Origin: Gammaproteobacteria bacterium
Lineage (GTDB): Bacteria; Pseudomonadota; Gammaproteobacteria; JBCCGL01
DNA: 64,000 nt
Direction: 5' to 3'
NCBI GenBank assembly: GCA_965277715.1
Contig: OZ255836.1
Location: forward strand, 448,001-512,000
Shown here: one piece after another, positions 28,790 to 55,636 of the stretch
How the letters are laid out: each line of letters opens with the position of its first letter
Position numbering within the stretch: the stretch's first letter is position 1
Notes under the pieces: generated by a model
The model's database searches: none
The model's input: the letters and a program-made list of their open reading frames with translations, nothing else
What the model was told of the DNA's origin: nothing
Position numbers and translations under genes: made by a program

Positions 28790-28877
28790 GGAGAGCTGGC
28801 TGAGTGGTCGAAAGCGGCGGTCTTGAAAACCGTTGAACCGTGAGGTTCCGGGGGTTCGAATCCCTCGCTCTCCGCCA
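28790..28877 (+). tRNA. tRNA-Ser(TGA)
   Basis: GGAGAGCTGGCTGAGTGGTCGAAAGCGGCGGTCTTGAAAACCG, long variable arm, GGTTCGAATCCCTCGCTCTCCGCCA. Confidence 0.96.
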
Positions 28878-29020
28878 AATTAAACTTATTAAGATATTGT
28901 TTTTAAAGGAAAAAATATGAAAAACATGCCTAATACCTGAAAGAGATAGACCCGCAAAAACTAATAATATACTCTTACACATTCCTTACACAAAACTTCA
29001 CATTTTGGAGGAATGTTCAA

Positions 29021-30175
29021 GTGGCGGAAAAGCACTCAATTCTTGGTGGAAAAGTCCACGTCTACAAGCGAACGGGAAGCCCTGTATGGCAATGTTCAGC
29101 CTATTTAGCGGGTAAAAATCACCGAGTAAGTTCAAAAGAAGAGAGTTTGGCAGCAGCCAAGGATTTTGCTGAAGACTGGTATTTAACACTTCAGGATAAA
29201 AACCGCCGTGGAGAATTGCTCACAGAGAAAACGTTCCGGCACGCCGCTGAGCGTTTCAAACTTGAATATGAAGTTTTAACCGAAGGTGAGCGAAACGCCG
29301 TGTGGGTGAGAGATCACTATCGGCGCATTGATAAGCATTTGACTCCTTTCTTTGGCAAGATGGGACTTTCAACTATCACATCTGGAACAGTTCAAGATTA
29401 TCGGATTAGCCGTTTAAAGCCGGAAGATGGGAAACATATACCCTCCAGAAGCACCCTGCATCACGAAATGGTAACGCTACGTATGGTAATGAAGGCGGCA
29501 GTGAGGCATGGGTGGCTTCAATACCTGCCTGATCTCTCTGAACCATATCGTGTTTCAAATAAAGTGGTTCACCGTGCGTGGTTTTCGCCAAGCGAATATC
29601 AGCTATTGTATAAAACCACTCGTAAGAAATTAAAGGAGAAAAAAGACGACAAATATGGGTATATCTGGGCGAATCTCCACGACAAGATATTATTTATGGC
29701 CAATACCGGTATTCGTCCTGATGAAGCCAACTGCCTTGAATATCGGGATGTCGAGATTGTCAAAGACGACGCCACCGGCGAGACAATTCTCGAAATAGAG
29801 GTGCGCGGTAAGCGCGGTGTAGGATATTGCAAAAGCACCACCGGTGCTGTTAGACCTTTTGAAAGAATGAAGGAGCGAAATCAGCCAGAATCGACCGACC
29901 GTCTCTTTCCGACTGATAACCATAGACACTTTAATGAAGTGTTGACAGAAATTGATTTAAAATTTGATCGGCAGGGGAACCGCAGAACACTCTATTCTCT
30001 CCGCCATAGTTATATTTCATTTAGGTTGCTGGAAGGCGCTGATATATATCAGATCGCAAAAAACTGCCGTACCAGTGTTGAGATGATTGAGAAGCACTAT
30101 GCTGTGCATTTAAAGAACAATCTGGATACAGCGGCAATCAATGTAAGGAAAGGCCGTTTGTTTCATCCTGCTTAA
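29021..30175 (+). CDS. Tyrosine integrase of the tRNA-Ser island
   Basis: Arm-binding N-terminus; NTGIRPDE, RGKRG, YSLRHSY, TSVEMIEKHY. Confidence 0.92.
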   Translation: MAEKHSILGGKVHVYKRTGSPVWQCSAYLAGKNHRVSSKEESLAAAKDFAEDWYLTLQDKNRRGELLTEKTFRHAAERFKLEYEVLTEGERNAVWVRDHYRRIDKHLTPFFGKMGLSTITSGTVQDYRISRLKPEDGKHIPSRSTLHHEMVTLRMVMKAAVRHGWLQYLPDLSEPYRVSNKVVHRAWFSPSEYQLLYKTTRKKLKEKKDDKYGYIWANLHDKILFMANTGIRPDEANCLEYRDVEIVKDDATGETILEIEVRGKRGVGYCKSTTGAVRPFERMKERNQPESTDRLFPTDNHRHFNEVLTEIDLKFDRQGNRRTLYSLRHSYISFRLLEGADIYQIAKNCRTSVEMIEKHYAVHLKNNLDTAAINVRKGRLFHPA

Positions 30176-30492
30176 CCTGTGCTATTTCGTTTAATTTTTT
30201 GTAGCTAATGGACGAAATTTAAAGTAATAATACCCTCCTAAGTGTCAGTTTTTTGCTCTAAGTAGACACTGGAAAAGCTCACTACTTGCAGACTTATCGG
30301 TAATCTGGTGAGATAAATACTTAAACAAAATAGAGCTACTTGGAAGTTAGCGAGAATAGACTTGCATTCAGCATTTAAATTAGTACCCTGAATACTGACC
30401 CGTAGGTCACCGAGAGAAATAATTTTCTTGGGTTGCGAGCACATGCTTAATTCAATGATAGAGCGAAATTTGCCGTTAATATCGGGAAGAAA

Positions 30493-30541
30493 CGGGCTCA
30501 TAACCCGAAGGTCGTTGGTTCGAATCCAGCCTCCGCGACCA
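30493..30541 (+). repeat. Orphan 3' fragment of an initiator-type tRNA-Met(CAT), probable att site of an inner element
   Basis: CGGGCTCATAACCCGAAGGTCGTTGGTTCGAATCCAGCCTCCGCGACCA covers anticodon arm to CCA with no 5' half. It lies ~90 bp upstream of a recombinase. Confidence 0.8.
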
Positions 30542-30632
30542 AGTTTCTAGATTATCAGTGGTATAATGGGTTTTCAAACCAGTAAAAAAGCGCTCTCAGT
30601 GACCTATGGGCTAAGCCCTAACCCCACAGAGA

Positions 30633-31544
30633 ATGTCAGAAATTTACCACCAGCTTCACGCCTTCTGCGAGTACTCTCTCGTTTTTAAAGGTAACACCGA
30701 GCGTTCCGTTGACACCTACCGTCGCGAACTAAGTGCTTATATCAAGTTTAGCGATGCACAAACCGTCGCCGATATAGACCAGTCGCAAATACAAAAATAC
30801 ATAATGCGTGGCAAGCTAGAACTTAACTGGTCGGCCAAGACGATTCGCAATAGAATTATCTCTCTTAGAATATTTTTAGATTGGTGTCTCAAACAAGGGT
30901 TAGTGACAGATAATCCTGCACGTACCATTGACCTTCCTCGACTACCCAAAACTCTCCCTCGTTCGTTGTCTAAAAACGATGCTTTTACCTTGCTCGAATG
31001 GGCGGCAAACTATCGATATACCTATAAATTCGAGCAGACGCGAGCTATTGCCATTCTCTCTTTGTTTATCTTCACCGGTATTCGCTTAAAAGAGCTGTAC
31101 GGCCTCAAAATGCAGGATATTAGGCTGACCGAAAGAAGTGTGTTTGTCTGTTCGGGTAAAGGACAAAAAGACCGCCTAATTCCGATGAACCACGATTTAG
31201 CGATTGCACTACAAGCCTACATTAAAGAGCGTGATCGTCGTAAACGCCATTGCCCTTACTTATTCGTTTCTCTCAAGCACGATATTCGTATGGGTGACAA
31301 AGTTGTGCCTCGTTTAGTTAACAAATTGCGCGAATGTAGCGACATCTATTTTTATCCACATATGCTGAGACATACCTTTGCGACTCTCATGTTAGAAGGC
31401 GGGGCGGATATTTTTGCCATCAGCAAAATGATGGGGCACAGCGATATCAAAACGACCACTATTTATCTATCGGTCACCACCGCTCACCTTCAAGCGGAAG
31501 TGGCCAAACACCCTCTTGGCACTATAAAAGCCTTATCTCACTAA
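30633..31544 (+). CDS. XerC/XerD-like tyrosine recombinase A
   Basis: LPRSLS, FTGIRLKE, GKGQKDR, PHMLRHTFAT, MGHSDIKTTTIY (full R-K-H-R-H-Y). Confidence 0.93.
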   Translation: MSEIYHQLHAFCEYSLVFKGNTERSVDTYRRELSAYIKFSDAQTVADIDQSQIQKYIMRGKLELNWSAKTIRNRIISLRIFLDWCLKQGLVTDNPARTIDLPRLPKTLPRSLSKNDAFTLLEWAANYRYTYKFEQTRAIAILSLFIFTGIRLKELYGLKMQDIRLTERSVFVCSGKGQKDRLIPMNHDLAIALQAYIKERDRRKRHCPYLFVSLKHDIRMGDKVVPRLVNKLRECSDIYFYPHMLRHTFATLMLEGGADIFAISKMMGHSDIKTTTIYLSVTTAHLQAEVAKHPLGTIKALSH

Positions 31545-32409
31545 TGCTACTCTTTAAGCTCTCAGTCGAAACGGAAAGGTAGGTCAATGTAGTGGTAATG
31601 CAGGAATGCCCCAATATTTCTTTAATTTTAAACACATCAACGTTGGCTTCAACCAGCAGCCGAGCACAAGTGTGCCGCAACATATGCGGCGTAAAATAAA
31701 TCCCTGTTTCGTGTGATAGTTTTTGGCAAACAGTACGCACATTTTTTCCCGAAATTGGTTTTTCAGATTGAGCGCCTGTGAAAAAATACCGGCTATAGTT
31801 TCGGCGAGATTTACGTTCTGCAAGGTAATTTTTTAGGATGGGTAACAACCGAGGATGAATAGGGACGATGCGATCTTTCTGCCCTTTTCCTTGACGTACC
31901 AGAATTTCTCGACTGACTAAATTTACATCTGGCACTTCTAAATCCAACATTTCTTGCAACCGGAGGCCGGTGTAAACTAATAGATAAAGCATCGTTTCGT
32001 TGCGGATAGCTTCAAATCGATACCGCCAAGCAAACCATCTAACGCCGTTTAGAACCGACTGAATATCCTCTCTGCACAGGCAACGCGGTAATCGCTGGGG
32101 AAGTTTGGGTTTTTCTATGCCATCAATCGGATTGATTTTAATCAATTGTTGTTTAACGCACCAACTGAAAAATGATCGTAAATATTGCCAGTTATTGCGA
32201 AAGGTTCGCGCTTCCCATGCCCGTTCTTCTTTACCCCAGTAAAGAAAAGCCCGCACTGTTCCACAATCTAGTTGCGTAATTTCTACCGTATCCGCCCACA
32301 CGCAAAGTGCGTTTACCGTAGCCATGATGCTGCGAAAACTTTTAGGTCGCATCCCGCGTTCGTGCAGGGCATAACGTTTAAAGGCATACACCACATCATT
32401 TACTTTCAT
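31522..32409 (-). CDS. XerC/XerD-like tyrosine recombinase B, convergent paralog of A
   Basis: LPRCL, YTGLRLQE, GKGQKDR, PHMLRHTCA, LGHSCITTTLTY; the two 3' ends overlap by 23 bp. Confidence 0.93.
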   Translation of the reverse strand: MKVNDVVYAFKRYALHERGMRPKSFRSIMATVNALCVWADTVEITQLDCGTVRAFLYWGKEERAWEARTFRNNWQYLRSFFSWCVKQQLIKINPIDGIEKPKLPQRLPRCLCREDIQSVLNGVRWFAWRYRFEAIRNETMLYLLVYTGLRLQEMLDLEVPDVNLVSREILVRQGKGQKDRIVPIHPRLLPILKNYLAERKSRRNYSRYFFTGAQSEKPISGKNVRTVCQKLSHETGIYFTPHMLRHTCARLLVEANVDVFKIKEILGHSCITTTLTYLSVSTESLKSSISEIRLL

Positions 32410-33262
32410 TACTGGTGGGGGTAGGAAGCGGAAAAGGATTAGCAGGCGTATTGTCGGCAAAATGCCAGCCTCCCGAAAAATTTGTGTTCAGATCATCTAA
32501 GGCACGAAACACAAAATTGTGTTTAAAAGGAGCAAACTCTGGATGTGCGTTTAGCCGCGTTTTAACGCTGGCTAGCACGCTGGCTTGATGGTGTACCGAA
32601 CAGATAATGGGGTGGCCTGCATAACCAAACTGCTGTTGAACCACGCCACTTTTGATGACTTCACAATACCGATTCAGTTGCTCGGTGACGGCTTTGCTTT
32701 GGGTCGAGCGATGAATCTCTACCAAGTACACCGCTGTCTGACCTGTATTCAAGCCAACGGCAAATACTCCATCAGGAATGACCGTATTAATTAAACTGGA
32801 CACCACCAGCTCTGTGGCTGATTTGCCGCGCCCTTGGCCAGCGTTTCCATGGCGGATAAAATCTTGCAGTTCCAGTAACACCTCAGCATCGCCTCGCTGT
32901 TCTGTCCATTGCCTCAAACCAATCTGAAAGTCCACCTGTGCAAAGCGGTGACGGGCAAAAAGCGCGGAAAATGGCTGTTTTTTGTTTGAAGGTACAGGTT
33001 CGCTTTCTATCCGCTCGATTTCCTGCAAAATACTGCGTCCCCTGTTGGTCAAATGGTGAACGTCCGGCAAAAACGAACCTATTTTTTCTGAATGAATGTA
33101 CTTGTGGTGTCGGAGAGCGAACAAGGTTTTATCGCGTAATGACTTCGCATTCTTAGAAATACCTAATTGCAGCATTTGCTCTACGGTTAGAAACCGATAC
33201 AGGTGCAAGGCTTGCATTACGCGCCACTGTTGGGGACTCACAACCGAAAAAGCCGTAGTCAT
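32396..33262 (-). CDS. Replication-relaxation (Replic_Relax / MOBC-like) protein 1
   Basis: N-terminal wHTH (YRFLTVEQM...HHLTNRG) and PD-(D/E)xK-like PDGVF...YLVEIHRST; directly downstream of a coupling protein. Confidence 0.75.
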   Translation of the reverse strand: MTTAFSVVSPQQWRVMQALHLYRFLTVEQMLQLGISKNAKSLRDKTLFALRHHKYIHSEKIGSFLPDVHHLTNRGRSILQEIERIESEPVPSNKKQPFSALFARHRFAQVDFQIGLRQWTEQRGDAEVLLELQDFIRHGNAGQGRGKSATELVVSSLINTVIPDGVFAVGLNTGQTAVYLVEIHRSTQSKAVTEQLNRYCEVIKSGVVQQQFGYAGHPIICSVHHQASVLASVKTRLNAHPEFAPFKHNFVFRALDDLNTNFSGGWHFADNTPANPFPLPTPTSNESK

Positions 33263-33275
33263 AAGAAAAATACAA

Positions 33276-34988
33276 TTAGAAAAAGTACGGCGTCCAATCC
33301 GTTTCAGAATGGAGTTTTTGCTCGCTATCACTTTGGGGGGAGGGTTTGCGATAGTAATCTTTGACCTGCTGTCGCGTCACTTTTCCCCACTCTTTGGGTG
33401 TCATAGCGAATCGGCGACCGATAAAACGAAGGCGCTGGCGAACGGTGGGCTTATCACCAACCACTCGAAAAAAAGATAAATTAGGTAGGGTACGAATCTG
33501 TGCCGTCCCTAAATCGGTTTCCTTCGCTAGTTTTTCGGCGGTGGTGTGACGCGAAGCCCCCACCCAAATAGTACCAACGTTGCCTAAAATGGCGTCTTGC
33601 AAATCGGGATCAAGCCGTTCGACCCGCTGGGTGGCCAACGTGGCATAAAGCCCAAACTTTCGGCTTTCGCCCAATATGTCGGCAATGGTCGGACTAACGA
33701 AATACTGGCATTCATCCACAAATAAATGAATCGGCTGCCGCTTGTAAGGCGTCCGTCCCAGCACATGGCTCAAAATGGCGGCATTGAGTAACTGACCAAT
33801 AGCGCGGATAGTGTCGGCACTTTGTTTTGACGGGTCAAAACACACCACTAACACCTTGCCAGAATCCAACACTTTTCCCAGATCAAAACTGCTTCTATGA
33901 CAGGTAAAGCGTCGCACAAAGGGATCACGCACCACATCAGTCAAGCGAGCCACTAAAGCTTGTTTGGTGGCGCGGTAGTGCGACTTGGCAAAGGTGGCGA
34001 TAAAGAACTGTCGGTCAATAATATTAGGCAAGTTCTCTTTTCCGTAGCGCACCAGATCAACATTTTGCTCGTCTTGCAGCAAGCGCACCAAATCCACCAA
34101 GGTCATATCGGGTTTGTGAAGCATGACCCCCAAACACGCTCGCATCAGTGTTCTCTGGATCGGCGTAAATGACTGGCCGATGATTTGTTCTATAGCACCG
34201 GAAAACTGCAACTGGGCGCGATTAAGTTTTTGCTCGGTGGGATGGGCTAAATCGAACGGGTTGAGGTGCACATGCTGGCCAGCAATGCCATTAAAGTTGA
34301 GATAGACCAACCGGTTATTTTTACGGTTTACCCGATCACGCACGATAGATCGGGCTAAGTCTCCGTGTGGATCAAGCACTACCAAAGATGGTTTTTTGTT
34401 CCACACCAAATAATGACGGATGAGGTTGTGCAGTAATACAGATTTACCCACACCTGTGCGCCCGACGATAAAGGTGTGTAGCCTCCGAAGATGTTCATTG
34501 ACGAAAAACCAGATAGGTAACATGGCTCCAAGTAACTGGCCGAACCAAAGCAGGATACGAAAAAAACCAGTGGTAATAAGCCACCAAATACTGTCAAAAC
34601 ATAGCGTCATTAATCGCACCGATAAGGCGTGTCGATAGAAAAAATTTCTAACGTGTTTGGGGTCTTGTTTTTGTCTTTGCATGGCTTCCAGAATAACGGA
34701 GGAACACACGACTTGTGAAACATTACGACTAGCGTTAACCCCTTTGAAATGGGAGTGTAGGGCGTTTTGAAAGGGGTATCGATTGAGACTTGCAAAGTGG
34801 TTTTTCAGGTGGTTTAGAAAGTGGTTACAAGAGAGATTTTTAACGGTGGTGTAAAGTATGTTTTGATATACGTATTCGAGGTAGCCCCGATGCCTTGCAA
34901 AAACCGTTTGCCAAAGCAAAAAAGTTCCCCATTCTCGGTGTAAAAATATCTGAATCAGTAGATAGGGGGATAAAAAAATCGATGCCAT
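33276..34988 (-). CDS. VirD4/TraD-like type IV coupling ATPase 1
   Basis: HTFIVGRTGVGKS, LDPHGDL, LFVDECQ, ESRKFG...ATQ, ILGNVG; N-terminal hydrophobic segment. Confidence 0.85.
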   Translation of the reverse strand: MASIFLSPYLLIQIFLHREWGTFLLWQTVFARHRGYLEYVYQNILYTTVKNLSCNHFLNHLKNHFASLNRYPFQNALHSHFKGVNASRNVSQVVCSSVILEAMQRQKQDPKHVRNFFYRHALSVRLMTLCFDSIWWLITTGFFRILLWFGQLLGAMLPIWFFVNEHLRRLHTFIVGRTGVGKSVLLHNLIRHYLVWNKKPSLVVLDPHGDLARSIVRDRVNRKNNRLVYLNFNGIAGQHVHLNPFDLAHPTEQKLNRAQLQFSGAIEQIIGQSFTPIQRTLMRACLGVMLHKPDMTLVDLVRLLQDEQNVDLVRYGKENLPNIIDRQFFIATFAKSHYRATKQALVARLTDVVRDPFVRRFTCHRSSFDLGKVLDSGKVLVVCFDPSKQSADTIRAIGQLLNAAILSHVLGRTPYKRQPIHLFVDECQYFVSPTIADILGESRKFGLYATLATQRVERLDPDLQDAILGNVGTIWVGASRHTTAEKLAKETDLGTAQIRTLPNLSFFRVVGDKPTVRQRLRFIGRRFAMTPKEWGKVTRQQVKDYYRKPSPQSDSEQKLHSETDWTPYFF

Positions 34989-35253
34989 AAAAGAATTAAA
35001 AAATAAAATATGTCAGTAGTTTATGATAAAAATTGGTAGAGACTGAGCTTTGGGTATGACGTAAGAAGCCAGATTTTATTGACAGCCGATTTTAACGTAA
35101 ATCTCAGGTAACAAGGCCACTTCCTTATTTAAAATTAATAAAACAACAGTAAGTACATACTGATTCACCGCAAATAATGAAAATTTGATGAAGTTGTGGT
35201 ATCACATCGAAGTGTAATTTCGTTAAAGTGCTGGCTCTTAACCCTTTTCACTT

Positions 35254-35703
35254 ATGGACGATACCGAATTGCAATACTGGTATAAATATCAAACGCAGCT
35301 AGATCAAAACGGTTATGACGAGCTAGCCTCGCGGGTAGAGTTAATCACCAAGGTAGCAGCACCGGCGGCGACCGAAATAGAAAAAACAATCCGCATCTGT
35401 ACGCTTAACGATGTCTTACGGATTACCGGTATTGGCGGCGAAATTTATATGACTACAGGCATACAAGCTCTTTCTGAAAATACCCAAAATAGTGTCCTGC
35501 TTGCTATCCGTACATTTGTCGATTTTAACAACGACAATGACCCCTACAAAAAGCATGATTGCGCGATCCTTCAGTCAACAAATCCCCGTTCAATGTTCAA
35601 GATTGATTATTACGACAAGACCAAGACCTATGGATCAGAAGCACCGGAAAACCCAAGTGTCACGAGCCGCGTAATGACGATGATGACACCAGGCGAGTAT
35701 TAA
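35254..35703 (+). CDS. DUF3768-like protein
   Basis: LND.LR...MTTGI...FNNDNDPY..HD...FKIDYYD...RVMTMMTPGEY. Confidence 0.75.
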   Translation: MDDTELQYWYKYQTQLDQNGYDELASRVELITKVAAPAATEIEKTIRICTLNDVLRITGIGGEIYMTTGIQALSENTQNSVLLAIRTFVDFNNDNDPYKKHDCAILQSTNPRSMFKIDYYDKTKTYGSEAPENPSVTSRVMTMMTPGEY

Positions 35704-36188
35704 ACAGGCGAAAAAAGCATCATTTTTTTAATTTTTCCTGTGATTCTTTGTAGCGCCGTCTGCTCAACTCAACTGTTTTCAGGTGTAGCCGCAAATGGGT
35801 TGGTGCTGGCTTGAAACTGTTCCTGTTTTCTCTATTTGGTCGTTTTTTGGCACTCCCGTCGACTTTTTCGCCGATATCTTGCTCTGTTCACTATTACTAT
35901 AGTACAAAATATAAAAAAAACATGGGTTTTTTATCATATATGATATGCATACCTCTAAATGATAATAGACAAATTCATGCATAATACAGTCGTTTTAAGG
36001 TATGAATATTGATATAAAAGACAGTTCTGGAAACTGGGAGAATGTTTGTGTTTAGATTTTTTCGACTTGGATTTTTAGTAATTAAGTATTGACTTTGATA
36101 CCCGCAGTACATGGGCTTTACGTCTTAACCTTCCTAATCTACTGGTGGAAGGTGTTGTGCAATATAAAAATAAGAGATTGAATTGTGA

Positions 36189-36569
36189 TTAAAGGCATTG
36201 GTTTGATAATAAAGAAGTTTTTCTGCGCATTTTTTCTATTAGTAATACTCGTTGCAGGGCTTGCGCCACTTCGTGCGGAGTGAAGTATTGGCCGAGGGAT
36301 TTTCGACCGTAGTTGGTGGCTAAGGCTTGGTATGTTTCGCCCAGAATATCGGCAAACGGTTGGGCTATTATTTGCTGGGCGTAAAGCCTTCCTAACTCGA
36401 ATAGGTGCGTGTTGGTAGGTTCGTCCCACGGGGTGTTTAGTTTGTGGCTAAAACTGGCCATGTTGTCGTCTAAAAAGTGCTCAAACCACTGCGTGGCGGT
36501 TTTGCCTTGGTGGTTATGCGATTTGATGATTTCGGTGGTCAGGGACTCGGTGGGGCTGGTTTTTGCCAT
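36189..36569 (-). pseudogene. Truncated N-6 DNA methylase (N-terminal part only)
   Basis: DILGETYQ...GQYFTPHEVA, then similarity is lost; no DPxCGSG or NPPF motifs. Confidence 0.7.
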
Positions 36570-37261
36570 TGGCTCCCACGGTAGAGAGTGGGGCTAAAAA
36601 GGCAAATTTACAACCGAGACACAAAATCCATGTTCCCGCACAAAATGGCAATAACTGAGACAGTCAATGTGTGATCGTGAACCTGATTTGGTGTCGATAG
36701 CGCCGTATAATATGGCCAGCTTAGCTTGATTTTTCAGTTGTAAGCCCATATTAAGTCTCTCTAGTAAACGAACTGTGTTTAATTGAAGAACAATAAACAC
36801 AAACATTGCTTTTTTGTAATATATTAGAAAAATTCTTATATATCAAATAGATAATGATTCTCGGTGATTTGTAGGTTGCTTTTGGCCAATTTGTGCAAAA
36901 AAGCTAATATTTACAGAAGGTTATATCTTTTCTGTGCAAGAGTTTTATTTGAATTTTGACGTTTGTGAAGGTTGCGTGAGTGATAATTGCTAGACAACTG
37001 CATGGCGGCTTCTATAATTATCTCTCAAGCGGGTTCAAAAGCCTGCTTATCGGTGGGAGCGCTTTTTGCTACCTTGTTGAAGCCAGTTCCCAGACAAGCA
37101 GCCTATCCAGGCATTCCATGGTATCTTCATCTTATGCTAAAGATATGCCCAAATTGGTCGATATCTAAGGAGCCTCTTATGCTTTTTGGCAGTTCTATTT
37201 GCAAACTTCTCTCAGTGAGTAAACTGAGAGTGTCTCAATTAATTACTAATTTCTTAACACG

Positions 37262-38011
37262 ATGGAAAATGAATTTAACAAGCAAAAGGAGCCAGATGTG
37301 AACAATTTCACCATACTTGATCATATCATAGTAGATAGAATAGATCGTTTAAAACCAAATCCAAAGTACAGAAAATTTGTGGCTAGGATTGAAGACGCAA
37401 GAAATAATGATGAAAATATCAATATTCAAATATCTGATGTAGAAAACCATTTGATATATAAGTTATTTGCCTTTCAAGAGCTAATAAAAAACGCTAAAGA
37501 AAATATAAATATATTTAGTCGGAATTTACCCTCTCAAATATATGATAACCCTCATATACTTTATCATCTCTCTGAATGGTTAAAAGCTGGTGAAGATAGA
37601 AAAATAAAAGTGCTGCTTAAAGAATCAGTTGATTTGAAGGGAAGATCTATTGGCGCTATTTTGTGTTCAGAATATTTTAAAGATAGAATTTCAATAGAAG
37701 TATCTAACCTTCGAGAAATTGACCAGTGCTATCGTAGCTGTGTTCTTTTTGATGATAATGCCTTTATGGCTGGTGAAGCGAATCCGTCAGGTGATATTGA
37801 AATTGCTATTTTTAATTTTCATGACAAGAAGGCTGTCAACTCTTTAAGTCGAGTTTACAATGCAGCTTATAATTTATCTAAGGAAACGAATCCGATTCAA
37901 AGCGAAGAAAATATAGTTGAGAGTAAGATTAATGAAATAATCCACTCGTCAGATCCTGTATCTATACCTCCTTATTTTGTTGCCCATAATATATATCAAC
38001 CGCATGGATAG
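37262..38011 (+). CDS. Hypothetical protein (AT-rich cargo)
   Basis: 249-aa ORF with GGAG upstream; INIFSRNL...IKVLL suggests a non-catalytic PLD-like alpha/beta fold. Confidence 0.6.
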   Translation: MENEFNKQKEPDVNNFTILDHIIVDRIDRLKPNPKYRKFVARIEDARNNDENINIQISDVENHLIYKLFAFQELIKNAKENINIFSRNLPSQIYDNPHILYHLSEWLKAGEDRKIKVLLKESVDLKGRSIGAILCSEYFKDRISIEVSNLREIDQCYRSCVLFDDNAFMAGEANPSGDIEIAIFNFHDKKAVNSLSRVYNAAYNLSKETNPIQSEENIVESKINEIIHSSDPVSIPPYFVAHNIYQPHG

Positions 38012-38120
38012 AATTAAGTATTAGAAGTTGAATGAGTAATATTTTAGTTTATATCTATAATAGTCGTTTTGGTCAACCTTGTAAGCATAATATTCTACAA
38101 TAAAGTAAATAAAGGGCGGA

Positions 38121-38669
38121 ATGACAGATATAATTCCTTTAGCGAGTCTGATACTGGGGGTTGTTGGTGCAGTAGGTGTTTTTGCTTTTTTGCAGAGCTG
38201 TAGAGATATTCCTATTGTGGTAACAAAAAAGATAATTGATGGATATGGACTGCAAGAAAAAATATACAAGAAAAAATATTATGCTGCCTTAGCCGATGGA
38301 TTATCTGAGGGAGTATATGTTAGTGGGAGAGGTATTGACAAAAAAGGATCCGATTCTGATTTATTAAGGTTTCACAACAAAAAGTATTTTGAAGACTATA
38401 TAAACTCTGTGAAAAGAGCCCTTCGTCTAACTGCTTTTATATGTTTTTTTACTTCATTTGGTGTGTTGCTTATAGCGAGTATAGTGTTGTTGCCTTTTAA
38501 AATATCGACCAGTCCAATTTTCCTTCAATTTAAATTGGTTTTTATTTTTACTATGCTAACTGTTTTTTTCTTTCAGTCAATTGAAGCTATTTTTCTAAGG
38601 CCGAAGCGTCAAGGGAAAGCGATGATTGAACGCATAAAAGATGAGATAAACAAAGTAGAGGGCATGTGA
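38121..38669 (+). CDS. Hypothetical membrane protein (3 TM)
   Basis: 182-aa ORF with one N-terminal and two C-terminal hydrophobic segments. Confidence 0.6.
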   Translation: MTDIIPLASLILGVVGAVGVFAFLQSCRDIPIVVTKKIIDGYGLQEKIYKKKYYAALADGLSEGVYVSGRGIDKKGSDSDLLRFHNKKYFEDYINSVKRALRLTAFICFFTSFGVLLIASIVLLPFKISTSPIFLQFKLVFIFTMLTVFFFQSIEAIFLRPKRQGKAMIERIKDEINKVEGM

Positions 38670-38750
38670 TAAAGATATCAAAAGAACATCGTCCCTAAGA
38701 AGCTGAGCTATGGCTTACCCTGTGCTCAATATATATAGAATAACAAGCAA

Positions 38751-38848
38751 GTAGTTGTGGCAAGCACCGCTTTCATCAGACTATTAAAGCTAACTCTTTA
38801 ATCAGTCGTTCCATTCTTTTGGCACACTCTTTCAAATTTGAGTCATAT
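38751..38848. repeat. Direct repeat copy 1 (61 bp identical, ~100 bp similar) of 40327-40424
   Basis: GTAGTTGTGGCAAGCACCGCTTTCATCAGACTATTAAAGCTAACTCTTTAATCAGTCGTTC at 38751 and 40327. Confidence 0.92.
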
Positions 38849-39137: not shown

Positions 39138-39385
39138 CAGAAGTAGGTTATACCTGTCCTTAATTTCTGATAATTTTTACGTTTTCGTCAAATTTTGCTA
39201 CATTGCAGGGTCAATTTTACGTTTTGTAGAAGGTGAGGATTTGTAGTTTTTAGAAAAGATTAAGCTTTTTATAAAAAAAGACTATATCTTTTTTAATTTA
39301 GGAAAAATAGTTGTTTTTTAAAATTTATTATTTAAAAAAAAATTTTCTCTAGATTTAAATATGAATTTAATTACCTTTCTATTTA

Positions 39386-44195: not shown

Positions 44196-44248
44196 CATTG
44201 GCATAATCATGTGTATGCTAATGACATACATATAACCGATCTAAAAAA

Positions 44249-45009: not shown

Positions 45010-45057
45010 CACCTCTATTGAGCACGCTAAAATAACCATAAACTAACATTACCCCTT

Positions 45058-46917: not shown

Positions 46918-47070
46918 TGAGGGGCGTAAAAGGCTAAAGTTCTCATGCCAAGCGTAGAAAATGGAATCATCGGTTATCGTCACGACCTTCTCGAATCTCG
47001 GCTATAACGTCACGAATTTGACAAATAACCAGCCAGTGTTAGCATGAGGACTATACTAAAACCAGTATCT

Positions 47071-47340
47071 ATGAAAACAACCAATATGCACACTATTACA
47101 AAGCAAGTACCTGTTAGCGAAGTGCCTCAGCAGTGGCGTGCAGGGTTAAGCAACAGCGCATTGATTAAAGTGACATTAGAAACCGTTCCTGAAAAGCCGA
47201 GTTCTCGACAAGTAGACCGCCAGAAAATCATCCAACAAGTTGCGGGTATTTGGAAAGACCGCGAGGATATTTCTGCCTTGTACGAAGACATGCGGCAAGC
47301 AGATAAGACAAAACTCGATTCCACTATACCCAAAAATTAA
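47071..47340 (+). CDS. Putative antitoxin upstream of VapC
   Basis: Short ORF abutting vapC, with AGIWKDRED-type antitoxin C-terminus. Confidence 0.65.
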   Translation: MKTTNMHTITKQVPVSEVPQQWRAGLSNSALIKVTLETVPEKPSSRQVDRQKIIQQVAGIWKDREDISALYEDMRQADKTKLDSTIPKN

Positions 47341-47715
47341 ATGGCGGTGCCTCTGCTCGATACTTGTATCTTGATCGACATCTTGCGAGGCAAACCCTCC
47401 GCAGTTGATCTTTACAGCAACCTCGAAGCCGAAGCGGCTGTGTCTGTAGTATCAGTGCAAGAGCTACTTGCAGGCGCACGGCCTGCGGAGTTAAAAGACA
47501 TTCAAGCCTTGCTCGCCACCTTTACCCATGTACCGGTTGATTTTGACGTGGCTTACAAATCAGGCGAATACCTCAACCAGTATTTTCGGAGCCATGGCGT
47601 TGGCTCTAATGATAGTTTCATAGCGGCCACAGCCACCCTTTTTAACTACCAGTTGCTAACGCTAAATTTAAAACACTTCCCGATGATTCCTGACTTAAAA
47701 AAAGCTTATTTGTAA
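47341..47715 (+). CDS. vapC: VapC/PIN-domain toxin
   Basis: LLDTCILID, SVQELLAG, DSFIAATA, TLNLKHF. Confidence 0.9.
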   Translation: MAVPLLDTCILIDILRGKPSAVDLYSNLEAEAAVSVVSVQELLAGARPAELKDIQALLATFTHVPVDFDVAYKSGEYLNQYFRSHGVGSNDSFIAATATLFNYQLLTLNLKHFPMIPDLKKAYL

Positions 47716-49411: not shown

Positions 49412-50308
49412 TCACCGAATAAGGCTAATTATCTTTCCTTGTGAGGTTTGCCAAATGTCCCCTTTTAAGAGAGTTGTTGCTGTCACTTGTTTATGATCGG
49501 TTACTAGCGTAGTCGGTTTGCACTGCATTTCGTTAATCAGGCGTACCATGTTGGCCGCCCGACGGGGGCTATTGGTCTGAAATAGCACAATAAAGCGGTC
49601 AAAGTCACCATATTTAGAATAAAGTCTGTGGGTGGCGTAGAGGTGATAGGCGGCTATTTTCCGGCGGATGGTTTCTAACCCCTCCGTGCCCCGATCAATC
49701 TCAACAAAAAAGAGGCGTTTTGCTTCATTTTGAGGGCTTTCTAAAATAACGGCGGCGTCAGGAAAAAACACCGTGGTTTGCCCAGTAGCCGGATCACGAA
49801 TTTCCTCGTAAAGTCGATACCGTTTCAGGCCAGTAAGTGAAGTAGCGCCTTCTTTGAGGAGAAAGTCCGGCACAAACAGGCGTAGCGTCAAACTCTCCGC
49901 TTGTTGCAAAGCCAATTCTAAATTGACGCGAAACTCCGCTAAATCCAAGGCGTGAAGCTGGGGGTTATGTTTTAGTCGCTTTTTGGTGCGTGAAAAAACA
50001 AGACCAATACCATTCTCATTGAGGCACTTTGCTCCAGCCTGATCGAGAAAATAAGCAACTTCTGAATTTTGACCCTCGTTGCCATACTGTAAAAACGGAT
50101 GGGCGCGACCTAGATACTTATTGTGAAACAAGAGCTTTAGGCGTTTTTGGCAGCTTTGCGACGATTGATTTTCGGGAAAAATCAACCGTTTAATTTGGCC
50201 GGTGCGCATGTAACGATAGCGGTTCACCGCCTTGAGAATATCAATATCTCGCTCGGTTACTCGAAAAGCCACGCCTCCTTTTATACGCTGTGTCCGAGCG
50301 TTACTCAT
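49412..50308 (-). CDS. Replication-relaxation (Replic_Relax / MOBC-like) protein 2
   Basis: TERDIDIL...YRYMRTGQI..L.F (wHTH), H.L, FPDA...FFVEIDRGTE. Confidence 0.85.
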   Translation of the reverse strand: MSNARTQRIKGGVAFRVTERDIDILKAVNRYRYMRTGQIKRLIFPENQSSQSCQKRLKLLFHNKYLGRAHPFLQYGNEGQNSEVAYFLDQAGAKCLNENGIGLVFSRTKKRLKHNPQLHALDLAEFRVNLELALQQAESLTLRLFVPDFLLKEGATSLTGLKRYRLYEEIRDPATGQTTVFFPDAAVILESPQNEAKRLFFVEIDRGTEGLETIRRKIAAYHLYATHRLYSKYGDFDRFIVLFQTNSPRRAANMVRLINEMQCKPTTLVTDHKQVTATTLLKGDIWQTSQGKIISLIR

Positions 50309-52764
50309 ACATTAAACAGACCGTCGGTGTCCCCATCATCTTCAATAAGGGGCATAGCCTCTAAATCCATTTCGTTAAGTTGTAGCGGCTCACCAAAAAA
50401 GGGGATTTGCCGGTTATGGGCTTCTTGTTCTATGGTTAATTTTGGAGCGTAATATCTGGGGTTGGCCGTTTGCAAACGGATTTTGGTTTGGGCTAGTTTT
50501 TTAGCGGAGGAACGCTCAGTAATCGCAATCGGTTTGACGTAAGGAATCTTGATATAGGCTGGTGTCCCCCCTTCATTGTTAAACAGGGCTATACCAGTAG
50601 GCAGGGTCATTAAATCACCTTGTTGCATGGCTTGGAGTTCTGGCAAACTCCAAAAGGTGGTACTAGAAATTTCTTGATATTCTTCTTTTTCGTCATAAGG
50701 GGCGGTGGTTTTCGACCGGCTGACAGCTTTGCTGTGACTCACGCTGTCACTGGTGCCTTGACTGCCGCCGGTGCTATGGCTTTGGGTGTGGGTGTTGGTA
50801 TGAGACTGACCACGAGCGTCGGCATAGCCAGTACCGCCGGAATGTCCTTCACTGTGAACTTGGCTTTTTCCCTGACCACCTCCACGGCTCGCACTGGTAC
50901 TGGAACTGCCGCCCCAATTGCTGCCGCTTGTCTTGGTGTCGGTGTAATTAGCACCAGAACTAAAGCCCTTCGTGTCGTTGGTGTTAGAGCCTGAACCGGT
51001 CGTAGCGCTTTCATTTTTGGTATGACTGTTTGACTTGGTTTTACTACGGCTTTCTGATTCGCTTTCACCAGAACTTGAGGTGCTGCTTTCGCTAAAAGCA
51101 TTTGCTACCGTTTGGCCGCCTGAATCGCTGTGTATAGCGGTAGTTGTGCCTACGCCGTCAGGGATGTATTGCGTATTTTTCCCCTGATTTTGGCTTTCGC
51201 TGTTAGTGCGTCCTGAGCTATAGCTGTAGTTGTTACTCCTAGAGCGGCTGACACCGTAAGTGTCGGCTTCGCTTTCTGTTTCTGAGGTGCCGTGTGTGAC
51301 GGAGTCGTTTTTACTCGTACCGTAGCTATGGCTTGCGTTCTTGCTTTGTGAAGTCCCATAGCTATCGGCTTGGCTGTTACTTTTCCCCCAGTTGTTGCCG
51401 CTATTTTGCCCTCTATTCCAAGTACTGTTTTGAGTCTGGCCGTGAGCGTTGGCGGTGTTCCAGCCTTCTTGCTCACTTTCGGTATGAGTCTGGGTTTCTC
51501 CGTCGCTGTAACCATCGCTAACACCATCAGAATAGTTTGTTCCCTCACTGTCGGTATGCGTTATACCATCGGCCACGGTGTGACCTTCGGAGATACTGGT
51601 TCGGGTGCTTTCTTTGGTACGAACTTTCGTTACCCACGTATTATGCTTCTCTTGCTTTAGATCATATTTGCCCGTCCAAATGAGCTTTGAAATTTGGTCG
51701 GCGTCATAAGGCGTTAACCCACCAAAGGCCACTTTAAGACGGCAGTTAGTCATAACCGAATTAAGGATTTGCTTGCCCATTTCGTCATTTTCCAACTGGG
51801 CTAAATGCTGGTGAGCCACGGTAAAAAAGATATTTTTTTTACGAATTTCATCGAGGGCGGCGGCCACTACTGGCGTTACATACTGGCCAAACTCGTCTAC
51901 GTACATATGAAATGGGGGATTGTCACGCCGTTCGTTGCGTTGCATGCCCACACGGTAAATTTCGCTCAAAAGCATGATCCCCAACATGCGTAAGTTAGCC
52001 GGATGAACACGGCCATAGTTACGTAAACTAACCAGCACAATTTTGCGCTCGGACATGATGCTGGCAAAGTCTAGGGCATTCTCTTGTTGCGACAAAACAA
52101 GCCGCATATGCTCGCTATTTAAGAGTCGAAACAACCGGTTTTGCACGCCTTCCAACATTTTGAGTTTTTCGGTACTAGAAAGCGTTTCAAAACTATCCCA
52201 AGCCGATCTAACTTGCATCGAGCTAACCCCAGACAACAATGCTTGTCGCTCGGCTTTGGCATATAAACTAATCATCGGTAGGGCTTCAACCAACGTTAGC
52301 TTATTGGCCAGTACCGGATAAAGCACATTGTAGAGCCACGATTTTAGGCGTGGAAAAGCTTCTTCCCCTTGTCCCCACGCAAACAAAATGCTTTCAATAA
52401 TGCCATCTACCGCATTGGGGAGACTGTCATAATCGCGTGGTATAGGATTAAATCCAGTGATTTGGTCGGTTTGAGCGGCTGGCTCAAATAAAATTATCCG
52501 GCTGGCCAAGTGGGGGGCTTTGTGGGCGACGTAGTCCATAATGTCATCGACTAACGCCCCGTGTGGGTCAATCACGCATGCGCCAACTTTGCGGTTTTTT
52601 AAGTCCTGCCGGATAAGCCGTTCCAAAAACTTAGATTTGCCTTTACCGGACGCACCAATAACGTGCATATGTGCTTTGCGGTCTTTGGCGTTTACCCGAA
52701 ACTCGGCACCGGTTTCGTCACGTCCAAACAGATAACTCTCTTTTTTGGAGGAGGCACTACTCAT
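50305..52764 (-). CDS. VirD4/TraD-like coupling ATPase 2 with ~300-aa Ser/Gly/Thr-rich insert
   Basis: HMHVIGASGKGKS, IDPHG, YVDEFGQ, EIRK...AHQ, VMTNC; low-complexity tract at ~50705-51610. Confidence 0.85.
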   Translation of the reverse strand: MSSASSKKESYLFGRDETGAEFRVNAKDRKAHMHVIGASGKGKSKFLERLIRQDLKNRKVGACVIDPHGALVDDIMDYVAHKAPHLASRIILFEPAAQTDQITGFNPIPRDYDSLPNAVDGIIESILFAWGQGEEAFPRLKSWLYNVLYPVLANKLTLVEALPMISLYAKAERQALLSGVSSMQVRSAWDSFETLSSTEKLKMLEGVQNRLFRLLNSEHMRLVLSQQENALDFASIMSERKIVLVSLRNYGRVHPANLRMLGIMLLSEIYRVGMQRNERRDNPPFHMYVDEFGQYVTPVVAAALDEIRKKNIFFTVAHQHLAQLENDEMGKQILNSVMTNCRLKVAFGGLTPYDADQISKLIWTGKYDLKQEKHNTWVTKVRTKESTRTSISEGHTVADGITHTDSEGTNYSDGVSDGYSDGETQTHTESEQEGWNTANAHGQTQNSTWNRGQNSGNNWGKSNSQADSYGTSQSKNASHSYGTSKNDSVTHGTSETESEADTYGVSRSRSNNYSYSSGRTNSESQNQGKNTQYIPDGVGTTTAIHSDSGGQTVANAFSESSTSSSGESESESRSKTKSNSHTKNESATTGSGSNTNDTKGFSSGANYTDTKTSGSNWGGSSSTSASRGGGQGKSQVHSEGHSGGTGYADARGQSHTNTHTQSHSTGGSQGTSDSVSHSKAVSRSKTTAPYDEKEEYQEISSTTFWSLPELQAMQQGDLMTLPTGIALFNNEGGTPAYIKIPYVKPIAITERSSAKKLAQTKIRLQTANPRYYAPKLTIEQEAHNRQIPFFGEPLQLNEMDLEAMPLIEDDGDTDGLFNV

Positions 52765-54247
52765 TGGTTAAATCCTCGTCGGTTAAGGCGCCGGTTTTAA
52801 CTTCTGCTGACGACATCAACGCGTCTATGGCTCGTTCTTTTACTTCGTCTGGCCAGTTATCACGGGCATTAATGGTATTGATTTTTTGCGCCAGGACGTC
52901 ATACATGGCTTCTAACTCATCATACTTATTTTGCGTGTTAAGCAATGAGGCTGTTTCTGGTGCGGCTACGCCTTGAGAGTCCGTTACTAGCTGGTTGAGC
53001 TTGAAAGCCAAGGTTCGTAATTGTGGGCGTTCTAAAAGGGCTACTTTTGCACCACCCTCAACGAGGGTGTAAAGTCGTTGGGTAACGGCTTCTAGTTCCA
53101 GCTTTTCGGCGTTGTCTTTGATTTGTTGTAGCTGTTGGGTAGCTTCATCTTTGATAGCTTTGGCTTCTTTGTGGGCTGCGGCTTTGATATCGGCGGCGTC
53201 TTTGTGAGTGATCGCTATTATTTCTTGGGCTTTACTTTCAGCCGAACTGACTATTTGACTGGCTTCATCCTCCGCTTGTTTTTTAGCCTCTAGCGCTTCG
53301 CGTTCTTGCTGTTTTACACGTTCCAAAATAGCGTTTTTTTGAGTTCCAGCTTCCGTTTTAATTTTGGTCGCTACTTGGGTGGCCGCTTGTGCGCCGTGTG
53401 TTCTGGCTATTTCGATAAGGTTTTCGGCTGCTTTATTGGCCTTGGTGATAATTTCTTTAGCTGTCGTGTGTGCTTTATCAACTACCTTTTTGGCTTTTTG
53501 GGTAGCATTAGTAATGCTATCGGTGATCTGTTCCTGTTTTGCTTGGTCTTTTTTGATTAGCTTTTGCAAGGATTCAATTTCTTTCTCAAGCGTTTTTTTT
53601 TGCCCCCTAAGCACCTCTACATCATCTTTTAGTTTTGCTTCATCCGCCTCTTTTTTGAGTTTATTATCAAATCTTGTTGCCCACTCCTTCGGCATTAGTT
53701 CAACCAGGGGCTGATTACGCCTCACGTATGTACCTAGATTATCATCAGGTATTAGCCACCTAACAATCTTAAAGTTATGGAAGTCTAGTCCTTGAGTTGC
53801 GTAATATAATAACTCAGTTTTTGAATCAAAGCTTATTATCTTGCGATTATTTCGATAAGCTTTTTTATTAAACGGAGAAACAAGTGTAAATTGAAATAAA
53901 GACATATCCTCAACATCTACAAGGTCTTGTGCAATAGCTTCAGAGAGAGAAATATAGGACATAACATTGAGGCATCCACGACCATCGCTAATATCTACTA
54001 ATTCTCTCTTATTTTCTTCATTTTGATAGTGATAAATTCTCTCGCCATTCTCGTAATTGAGATGTGTTACGTACCCATCCCCGTAAGCTTTCAATGGTTC
54101 AAAATAACCATCGTTTCCCTCGATACATCCAATAATTTGATGTTTAAAAATCAAATCTTTAGGTTTAACAAAAAGGGTAATCGTACACTCCTCCTCATTG
54201 TATACACCTAGATCGGCCTGAATAAAAAACTTTTTTTGTAAGCTCAA
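52757..54247 (-). CDS. Hypothetical protein with long Ala/Lys/Glu coiled coil
   Basis: Repeated A..I...A..EA periodicity in the C-terminal half; stop overlaps the T4CP start. Confidence 0.75.
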   Translation of the reverse strand: MSLQKKFFIQADLGVYNEEECTITLFVKPKDLIFKHQIIGCIEGNDGYFEPLKAYGDGYVTHLNYENGERIYHYQNEENKRELVDISDGRGCLNVMSYISLSEAIAQDLVDVEDMSLFQFTLVSPFNKKAYRNNRKIISFDSKTELLYYATQGLDFHNFKIVRWLIPDDNLGTYVRRNQPLVELMPKEWATRFDNKLKKEADEAKLKDDVEVLRGQKKTLEKEIESLQKLIKKDQAKQEQITDSITNATQKAKKVVDKAHTTAKEIITKANKAAENLIEIARTHGAQAATQVATKIKTEAGTQKNAILERVKQQEREALEAKKQAEDEASQIVSSAESKAQEIIAITHKDAADIKAAAHKEAKAIKDEATQQLQQIKDNAEKLELEAVTQRLYTLVEGGAKVALLERPQLRTLAFKLNQLVTDSQGVAAPETASLLNTQNKYDELEAMYDVLAQKINTINARDNWPDEVKERAIDALMSSAEVKTGALTDEDLTNE

Positions 54248-54444
54248 TTTTCTATCACTCTTGCTATCGATATGAACACATCATATCCTTACCCTGCGAA
54301 CAAAAATTTGGCTGTCTAGTCTTACCCACAGATACCGGCTTATTTTTTGTGTAGTTTGCGTTGGTTGCTTGATTCGCTCAATTGACTAACAAAAAACCGC
54401 GTTTTTAGTTCTTAACCCCTTATTGGTTATGCAAAACCAAAAAA

Positions 54445-54880
54445 CGGCTGCCGCACCGCTTCAAGGCGCACGGCTCTACTTTCCGGGCTATTTCCCAAAG
54501 GGAAACGCCCCGTATGTAGAGTTGGGAACGGGTTCTAGACCCCTACCCACTGATCGACGTTGGATCATTCCGCGTCCGATCTGTAATGCTCTTTGGGCAT
54601 TCTTGTTTGGGTTTCCACCTAAACAGTCGACTTCTCGTCGTCGTTAATCAGCGAAAAGCCAGTGTGTTAACCCACACTGGCTTACCTTTTATGGTCTCGT
54701 ATGCAACCAAGGCCAAATGCCGCACCCCTCACGATATACGCCTTCACTATTCCGTCAAGTTTTCACCCGAAGCACCAAGATCGAGCGCCCGAAAACAAGC
54801 AGAGGGCTTGCCTTACCTACTACAGGGTCTCATCAAAAAGCATTCCGATTATTGGGGGGCTTTTTCGCACGCGAAAAAGA
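54445..54880. other. Hairpin-dense non-coding region (candidate structured RNA or ssDNA origin)
   Basis: CTCTAC..GTAGAG enclosing TTTCCC/GGGAAA; TGTTTGGG/CCTAAACA; perfect AAGCCAGTGTG/CACACTGGCTT; CTTTTTCG/CGAAAAAG. Confidence 0.5.
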
Positions 54881-54967
54881 GAGCCTTGAAGGGATCGAAT
54901 ACCCAGATATTTTCATACCACAAAAAACGTTAAATATCGGATCAAAAACCGCTCCTGTCAAGGCGTC

Positions 54968-55137
54968 GGGTTGTTAGGGTGTATCCCTGACCCCACCCCG
55001 CTTATGAAAAACTGTTAAAACGAGGGGTGGGGTCAGGGATTTATTGAGCCAATTATTTCTCCTTATCCACATTTACCCGACAGGGGAAGCGTGGATAAGG
55101 TACTGAAATAAAAGTGAAATAACAGACCTGACAACCC
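54968..55137. repeat. Nested inverted repeats with DnaA-box pair (candidate oriT/oriV)
   Basis: 17-bp perfect IR at 54983-54999/55024-55040. 10-bp IR at 55061-55070/55091-55100, overlapping TTATCCACA (55063-55071). Outer 11-bp IR with one mismatch at 54968-54978/55127-55137. Confidence 0.7.
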
Positions 55138-55575
55138 ACCCCCCAATGTGGCCAATGCCGCGCTCCCTGTATAGTCTGACTTTATACCCTCTTTATGGGT
55201 AACTTTATAGGTAAGTGTATAGTCTTCCAGTAATATTTTTGCTTTTTTTGACCTACCACACTGATGGCCTGACTCGAAGGAGAAAACAAAGCTATGAAAT
55301 CATTGAGAAGCTTTAGACCCTGATACCCCCTATCACTAAAAACTCCCAGCTCAAGTGGAACCTTGAAAGCTATAGCGAAGTTATAGGCATTTTTTAATTT
55401 CGACATCCGCACCCAACTAGAGTAGGCATCAAAATATCATCAGGAAAGTGTAAGTGTTACTAATATGAAAGTTTTTCAGCGGATGAATTATAAGTTTTAC
55501 TTGCACAAAAACTTTCACAATTATTATTTTTGTAAATTTTTTATTATATAAAACAATTGGTTATATTATTTATAC

Positions 55576-55636
55576 GCGGTCTTGAAAACCGTTGAACCGT
55601 GAGGTTCCGGGGGTTCGAATCCCTCGCTCTCCGCCA
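55576..55636 (+). repeat. attR, duplicated 3' part of tRNA-Ser
   Basis: Identical to 28817-28877. Confidence 0.95.

Follow-up and report, generated by a model that had tools for sequence, protein, structure and literature searches.

Islands inserted into tRNA genes by P4-type integrases classically carry the integrase next to the tRNA, are bounded by a repeat that runs from the anticodon stem to the 3' end of that tRNA, and vary in presence between strains. More than one recombinase or attachment (att) site per element is also known: recombinase-trio elements (RIT) and GInts hold three tyrosine recombinase genes in one operon, and in tandem integration of SGI1 an internal att-like site within the larger block reportedly matches the flanking att of the same target. 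Here, we describe a 26.8-kb island at a tRNA-Ser(UGA) gene of a gammaproteobacterium (assembly GCA_965277715.1, contig OZ255836.1), located in a stretch of 64,000 nucleotides (nt) that is referred to as the window and whose positions are used for all coordinates. Besides the integration module that matches its tRNA-Ser boundaries, the island carries a second one, directed at an initiator tRNA (tRNA-fMet), which appears to lie idle. Two types of integrative and conjugative elements (ICEs) serve as references. For ICEPmu1/ICEMh1-type elements of Pasteurellaceae, a XerC/XerD-like tyrosine recombinase pair was proposed as the integration module, and their direct repeat corresponds to the anticodon loop of tRNA-Leu UUG, with one whole tRNA rebuilt and one partial copy left (PMC6861422). 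Tripartite ICEs such as ICE3 of Mesorhizobium use the integrases IntS, IntG and IntM, each with its own att site; a chromosome inverted or split around the element is their condition, and the authors proposed an origin by recombination among single-part integrating elements (PMC5882170).

The boundaries of the island are two exact direct repeats of tRNA-Ser, covering its positions 28 to CCA, with a spacing of 26,759 nt (Table 1). The G+C content was 0.32–0.49 within the island vs. approximately 0.53–0.58 in the flanks. The open reading frame (ORF) of the outer integrase begins 144 nt past the tRNA-Ser, and homologues with 56–70% identity were located 100–150 nt downstream of whole tRNA genes in 10 of 20 loci. 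The outer integrase is best read as the module in use for insertion at tRNA-Ser. Mobilization genes are present as well (Replic_Relax and a TraG-D coupling protein, plus a second, distant pair), and no further type IV secretion system family was detected among the 33 ORFs scanned.

The left part of the island was recovered from nine public runs, namely isolate runs of a single organism (three) and sponge metagenomes that belong to three additional studies; no RNA run was listed among them. The contigs of four runs (X1, X4, X5, and X7) were compared over 27400–31400. The isolate contig X1 showed zero differences from the window, and the island was present with few changes in the sponge metagenomes X4 and X5. 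For X7, the left flank was covered by a contig at a depth of approximately 1020 that differed at 11 of 1,427 nt, and the depth was 0 over 29008–30481 and 30616–31400. A very close strain lacks at least the left part of the island, which is strain-variable. In this respect, and in having an integrase beside the tRNA and a repeat of the kind described, the island resembles classical P4-type islands; those, however, consist of a single module and have no second attP for another tRNA.

Two minor observations concern the surroundings of the outer module. A 23-nt stretch at 28615–28637, 172 nt upstream of tRNA-Ser, is 87% identical to the 5' part of that tRNA (repeat family D6); no tRNA was called there by ARAGORN or Rfam, and the stretch may have remained from an earlier rearrangement at tRNA-Ser. 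Elsewhere, a tandem pair of outer-type integrase genes follows one tRNA-Met in two genomes (L187/L208 and L214, in G187 and G185).

Table 1. Positions of the island features in the window (nt; aa, amino acids; strand left empty where none applies).
Feature	Position	Strand	Evidence or remark
tRNA-Ser(UGA) gene, attL	28790–28877	+	ARAGORN (anticodon tga); Rfam tRNA 58.6 bits
Left direct repeat	28817–28877	+	3' 61 nt of tRNA-Ser
Outer tyrosine integrase, 384 aa	29021–30175	+	phrog_1 integrase E 3.7e-27; Pfam: weak SAM-like matches only
Left-arm element of inner attP, CTGACCCGTAGGTCACC	30395–30411	+	93 nt before anticodon loop; GGTC position conserved among relatives
Inner attP core, 49 nt	30493–30541	+	Initiator-tRNA position 28 (5' strand of anticodon stem) to CCA; G at position 72 (30537)
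Dyad-symmetric element abutting inner integrase start codon	30595–30632	+	14-pair dyad over 26 sequences
Inner integrase, XerC/D-like, 303 aa	30633–31544	+	PF00589 E 9e-33; TIGR02225 XerD 200 bits (cut-off 329.6)
Partner tyrosine recombinase Yrec2, 312 aa	31522–32460	-	PF00589 E 1e-33; convergent with inner integrase
orf311, distant Replic_Relax-like protein	32396–33331	-	Language-model features and hhalign
T4CP/HerA-like ATPase (T4CP, type IV coupling protein), 570 aa	33276–34988	-	TrwB_AAD_bind, DUF87, T4SS-DNA_transf; 78% identical to L016, 62% to G001
DUF3768 protein	35254–35703	+	PF12599 E 5e-29; frequent companion of inner module
Short tyrosine recombinase Yrec3	40832–41605	+	PF00589 E 8.5e-15
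Cargo: TacA-like antitoxin and GNAT toxin pair, SEC-C protein, PIN-domain gene with small upstream ORF	44249–47715	+	Pfam
Second mobilization module: Replic_Relax (298 aa), TraG-D-type coupling protein (819 aa), coiled-coil protein (496 aa)	49412–54247	-	Pfam
Near-perfect palindrome, 26-nt arms	54983–55040		Inverted repeat I7; inside island right end
Right direct repeat, attR	55576–55636	+	3' 61 nt of tRNA-Ser; 100% identity to 28817–28877

The core of the second module lies 1.6 kb from attL and ends 92 nt ahead of the inner integrase start, with its T-stem beginning 119 nt ahead. Its 3' acceptor strand reads CTCCGCG-A-CCA. Searches of the window with a 25-mer and a 17-mer from the core, each allowing up to 3 mismatches, gave 1 match vs. 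0.00 and 0.12 expected, so that the core is single-copy there. As expected for half a tRNA, it was called by neither ARAGORN nor Rfam. A DNA search of 30200–45000 against a plasmid collection matched the core stretch only, to tRNA-fMet genes (best 92.9% over 56 nt). A sequence-only reading of this DNA had previously reported the 61-bp att repeats with their integrase, the 49-bp anticodon-to-CCA initiator fragment with this acceptor strand directly before a recombinase 1.6 kb inside, and the lack of a second copy. All of these observations were confirmed, as was the composite character of the island, with two recombination modules aimed at two different tRNAs; the interpretation built on them was only partly supported, as discussed below.

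The inner integrase was aligned with its 30 closest database relatives (alignment A1), and 160 relative loci were collected, 80 from species-representative genomes (alignment search) and 80 from metagenomes (protein alone). A tRNA or tRNA piece was present immediately upstream of the integrase gene in most fetched loci. The geometry of the window, defined as a T-stem 115–124 nt before the start codon or a whole tRNA ending 87–95 nt before it, was shared by 41 of the 160 loci, 34 with only a 3' piece and seven with a whole tRNA (L036 was added by eye, and L127/L129 and L119/L120 are duplicate sequences). The 3' pieces belonged to at least five tRNA identities (fMet, Pro, Asn, Thr, and Lys) and reached the CCA. 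At fragment-only sites of fMet type, tRNA identity begins at positions 28–32, which suggests that the family acts at tRNA anticodon loops and donates the 3' half of its target. The closest relatives, L115, L116, and L117 (66, 65, and 59% identical, respectively), were all fragment-only. In a further arrangement, layout B, found in 11 loci, the genes of the partner recombinase and the integrase flank the site on either side, which excludes a host junction. The inner module is best read as truly integrated in a minority of relatives and as mostly unrecombined, inside islands inserted by another integrase at another tRNA.

Fragment-only sites have in common the element CC-N-GTAGGTCA approximately 90 nt left of the anticodon loop; its GGTC starts at −96 to −85 in 24 of the 34 fragment-only relatives, with one other occurrence in all their 160-nt left flanks. 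The element was missing from five of six whole-tRNA sites (L010, L015, L022, L118, and L119), where host-type genes precede the whole tRNA, such as ddl (D-Ala-D-Ala ligase) before tRNA-Asn at L119 and, further upstream, alanyl-tRNA synthetase at L015. The sixth, L016, combines a whole tRNA-Thr with the left-arm element; it had been considered an independent inner element integrated at tRNA-Thr, which was dropped because the element points to an attP holding a whole tRNA-Thr. Since the left flank in the window is the family's own left-arm element and not target DNA, 30493–30541 is not a junction at a secondary site.

The dyad that abuts the inner integrase start codon forms the right side of the site. 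Among 26 sequences, pairing was observed in 76.4% of the dyad cells vs. 68.4% in shuffles and 18–39% when the frame was slid; nine pairs showed compensatory changes, and the covariation score was reached by 0 of 500 shuffles. The left element resembles the 3' arm of the dyad in many loci (12-mer left/right test, p ≤ 0.05 in 14 of 34). Taken together, 30395–30632 is an intact, unrecombined attP, for which no second copy of the core is expected. Two candidates in this stretch were set aside: a TAGAGCG-like arm motif noticed by eye did not prove general (4 of 34 sites; not above shuffles) and was replaced by the position-fixed left element, and an 87-aa ORF at 30238–30501 was treated as spurious, given its overlap with the attP arm and the absence of relatives across the loci.

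Some relatives departed from this scheme. In a more distant branch (L045, L047, L053, and L063), a whole tRNA-Thr(GGT) is flanked by a partner-type recombinase on one side and the integrase on the other, and relaxase, coupling protein and DUF3768 are found to the left; the attP of these elements seems to include an entire tRNA gene, and one Myxococcota chromosome of this branch holds two copies with identical upstream DNA. At L012, L037, L038, L051, and L056, the integrase is preceded by a tRNA 5' half up to the anticodon loop and then by unrelated DNA, the opposite polarity of tRNA restoration. The Acinetobacter plasmids L082 and L083 (9.8–14.6 kb) contain a stretch of approximately 50 nt that is 92% identical to the initiator-tRNA piece, and no tyrosine recombinase is annotated beside it. 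Bacteroidota carriers (L007, L008, L009, L011, L019, L023, L029, and L030) have a conserved opposite-strand ORF of approximately 70–85 aa upstream of the cassette (shared ..IIKLLR..Y.EDP.C.GDI.FLF), with the whole outer tRNA just before it in L007, L008, L009, L019, and L023; its product could be an excision factor.

The core could be compared directly with the tRNA-fMet of the host. Contigs of X7 and X4 at host depth aligned solely to 30493–30546, with five other letters (50–54 nt); ahead of 30493, these contigs read as an initiator-tRNA 5' half, and position 28 is exactly where identity starts. With an identity of approximately 90%, the host-type tRNA-fMet is similar but not equal to the core, which is foreign to the host. 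In three proxy genomes, the best other match of the inner core in its own genome was 86–88% over 34–51 nt (3 of 3). The cores of L115 and L117 equal that of the window letter for letter, except for A72 instead of G72, and G72 is retained in the X4 copy. G72 is a private substitution, with A72 in the closest relatives. The earlier proposal that the fragment came from a different host holds insofar as the core is foreign, but not insofar as CTCCGCG was taken as the signature of another host, given the same core with A72 in L115 and L117.

Unlike the internal sites of SGI1 tandem arrays, the inner core of the window belongs to a different tRNA than the flanking repeats (initiator vs. tRNA-Ser) and keeps both arms.

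Both recombinases of the inner pair have full-length ORFs and match XerC/XerD models at 156–200 bits, under the equivalog cut-offs of 330–335. The invariant columns of A1 include those consistent with the catalytic R..K..HxxR..H..Y, an assignment that is our own reading. The X4 copy of the inner integrase has two differences, both synonymous; together with the full-length ORFs, this is a sign of constraint. The outer integrase copy in X4 (sponge metagenome) has five, four synonymous and one replacement. A tblastn search of plasmids with the inner integrase gave no match at 1e-40. Yrec2 is a conserved neighbour of the inner integrase across loci, in two layouts, and DUF3768 homologues adjoin the recombinase pair in L053, L063, and L122. 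The protein of orf311 had no Pfam match, and its pairwise BLASTP comparison with the 298-aa Replic_Relax was not significant; language-model features assigned it to Replic_Relax (0.96; 30 of 30 matches Replic_Relax), and hhalign profile-profile comparison with the family of the 298-aa protein gave 95.3% (E 2.2e-8). The 570-aa and 819-aa ATPases are paralogues (24% identical, E 2e-12). The island holds two sets of relaxase-like protein and coupling-type ATPase, and these paralogous modules hint at a fusion of two small mobilizable elements.

With its two adjacent XerC/D-like recombinases and a putative crossover at an anticodon loop, the inner module is like ICEPmu1/ICEMh1 in layout. Unlike in those elements, whose pair is the working module that bounds the element, the site of the window pair is single and unrecombined, and it is the tRNA-Ser repeats that bound the island. 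Several tyrosine recombinase genes side by side at one island end are also reminiscent of RIT and GInts; here, unlike there, only two recombinases are present, convergent, and the third ORF is Replic_Relax-like and not a recombinase.

The same composite state was found elsewhere. Besides the window, three carriers could be delimited: G001, a metagenome-assembled genome (MAG) titled Rhizobiaceae, with an exact 46-bp tRNA-Met(cat) repeat around 29.9 kb, an outer-integrase homologue (68%) and attP(Thr); G002, a Bacteroidota MAG with an exact 46-bp tRNA-Lys repeat around 46.9 kb; and G003, likewise a Bacteroidota MAG, with a 63-nt, 94% tRNA-Leu repeat around 32.7 kb. In the latter two, a Bacteroidetes-type integrase of 404–423 aa lies beside attR and the cassette within 0.7 kb of attL; both also contain relaxase, coupling protein, and restriction or defence cargo, and the G003 cassette is without the ATPase and relaxase-like genes. 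In all four carriers the island is bounded by repeats of another tRNA, another integrase is present, and the attP of the cassette is unrecombined. The arrangement recurs across phyla.

Identities between G001 and the window were 52% for the inner integrase, 75% for the partner recombinase, 65% for orf311, 62% for the ATPase, 40% for Replic_Relax, 39% for the coupling protein, and 36% for Yrec3. A second locus of G001 has a whole initiator-type tRNA, an outer integrase (70%) and then attP(Thr) with left element and dyad. The targets among related composites were Ser, Met, and initiator Met for the outer module and fMet and Thr for the inner one, and both modules appear to have changed tRNA targets as these composites diverged. 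The modules also exist apart: the outer-integrase family, found in 22 of 401 sampled genomes of G001's class, occurred without the inner family in 18 of 19 genomes, with both in G001 only, and in Bacteroidota the inner module is accompanied by unrelated outer integrases. With this, and with the five letters that separate the core from the host tRNA-fMet, neither identity to the host gene nor a lack of independent modules, which the sequence-only reading had named as grounds for giving up its proposal, was found. Two further candidates were not upheld. A pairing of the outer integrase with the right-hand mobilization module was unsupported in four of four cassette-free islands, and L090, first taken for stacked modules, is better explained as a tandem-array joint, in which a provirus that has its own 430-aa integrase terminates in a tRNA-Lys fragment and the outer-type integrase comes after this fragment.

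We favour, with a probability of roughly 0.6, the reading that the whole stretch is a single, composite integrative mobilizable island equipped with two integration modules, of which the first is in use and the second is a reserve or hitchhikes. The 384-aa integrase of the first module would have acted on the host gene and on an attP that contained the final 61 nt of tRNA-Ser(UGA), and their recombination would have left the two exact repeats. The second, idle module would consist of the complete attP (left arm, 49-nt core, start-codon palindrome), the XerC/D-like integrase and the partner recombinase, continuing with the relaxase-like protein, the coupling-type ATPase, and DUF3768. If still functional, it could provide a second landing site after transfer, in hosts with a matching tRNA; alternatively, it could form the central part of a small mobilizable element that is carried along as a passenger. 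The composite may have originated by fusion of two small mobilizable elements. Recombination in cis between the spare attP and the chromosomal tRNA-fMet would invert the chromosome or split it around the island. Like ICE3, the island has several tyrosine integrases, each with its own att (Ser repeats for the outer one, the fMet attP for the inner pair). ICE3 occupies three separate chromosomal pieces with every att recombined, whereas the window island forms an unbroken block in which one att pair has recombined and one attP has not. As a whole, the island resembles a precursor of multi-integrase ICEs that is still in one piece, in the state before the split.

Several observations weigh against this composite reading. 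Initiator tRNAs usually have a 1:72 mismatch, and G72 would give the rebuilt initiator tRNA a 1:72 pair, which argues for relaxed selection on the core in this island. The right arm of the start-codon dyad is degenerate in the window's clade, and the left element of the window is consequently unlike the 3' arm of the dyad (12-mer left/right test 8 of 12, p 0.77). An 11-mer left/right repeat was significant in four of the 34 fragment-only sites, and a 7-mer enumeration of arm motifs did not exceed shuffles. Modules of this kind do decay, as shown by the second G001 composite, whose inner integrase is truncated to 247 aa and lacks a partner. The assembled contigs, in which rare forms would go undetected, contained no excision or integration product of either module. 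Because the four carriers were picked for a nearby whole other tRNA on a long contig, they do not represent a random sample. Four cassette-free islands of outer type share no other backbone gene with the window, which leaves the two-element fusion without direct support.

Some of these points would also fit a dead relic, in which the inner attP and recombinase pair are a functionless, decaying leftover and the island moves via the tRNA-Ser module alone. The private G72 is kept in the X4 copy too, the right palindrome arm is degenerate, one G001 copy is truncated, the host tRNA-fMet differs from the core at five letters, and 34 of 41 relatives are unrecombined. We nevertheless consider a relic unlikely: both ORFs are full length with the presumed catalytic columns invariant in A1, the X4 copy of the inner integrase differs only synonymously, and conservation across phyla extends to the left-arm element, the geometry of the core (T-stem at −115 to −124) and the palindrome. 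Unlike in a decaying relic, the identity of the core was switched (fMet here, Thr in G001) with the architecture intact.

A different task for the cassette, namely a one-site job on the excised circle, in which the pair and the neighbouring ATPase resolve multimers or cointegrates instead of integrating into a chromosome, seems improbable. A single site, a XerC/D-like pair and an adjacent FtsK/HerA-like ATPase are the make-up of a resolution system, and the unrecombined state is the rule among the relatives. Resolution would, however, not call for a core that copies the 3' halves of real tRNAs, of at least five identities and up to the CCA, which is needed only to rebuild a tRNA gene. True attL states with host genes on the left also exist, and the G003 cassette does without the ATPase and the relaxase-like genes.

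The interpretation first put forward for this locus, in which an inner element of approximately 24.6 kb integrated via its own att at a secondary site in a minimal outer island, is very hard to maintain. It would account for the outer integrase standing alone at the left, with all else between it and attR, and for the two paralogous mobilization modules, yet it is contradicted by the family's own left arm at 30395–30411, where target DNA would be expected. No second partial copy of the core is present in the window, and the same backbone with the same left-end order recurs in G001 within its own outer-tRNA repeats, so that a minimal outer island was not borne out. Finally, a joint between two elements inserted successively in a tRNA-fMet gene can practically be dismissed: such internal joints exist (e.g., L090), and tandem SGI1 arrays with an internal attP have reportedly been published, but just 1.6 kb separates the piece from tRNA-Ser, and this holds only the outer integrase and no tRNA-fMet gene.

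Beyond the composite reading of this one island, a broader proposal can be advanced tentatively, as a possibility that we hold to be rather doubtful at present: attP and integrase, with or without the partner, might form a portable cassette that is mainly an unrecombined passenger in unrelated integrative elements of Pseudomonadota and Bacteroidota. It would switch its tRNA core, give its carriers a second landing site and, firing in cis at a chromosomal tRNA gene, seed split multipartite elements and rearrangements. Islands at tRNA genes are usually read as one integrase and one site, and here a second complete, apparently constrained attP-integrase unit sits idle inside. A working spare module would account for the widening of host range in mobilizable islands and for the exchange of tRNA targets by integrases, and would show how multipartite elements with several integrases, such as ICE3, begin. 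For annotation, a tRNA fragment beside an integrase within an island need not mark the island boundary. A limited literature search on internal or second attP sites and on recombinase pairs at tRNAs yielded no account of unrecombined attP-integrase cassettes inside other tRNA islands.

The remaining content of the island includes the AT-rich cargo region (Table 1) and the palindrome near the right end, whose arms are 85% complementary and which ends in GGGGTCAGGGAT; a 17-mer of its arm occurs nowhere else in the window. The short recombinase Yrec3 sits between inverted copies of gene 5' parts (inverted repeats I1, I3, I10, and I13), which belong to two tandem paralogous small ORFs at 41660–42010 and 42023–42307. 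The inverted repeats pair 39060–39124 with 42036–42100, 39043–39074 with 41747–41778, and 39102–39125 with 41675–41698, and the region 38900–42900 looks like a shufflon-type invertible segment. In G001, the Yrec3 homologue and a neighbouring 478-aa gene occur in reverse order compared to the window.

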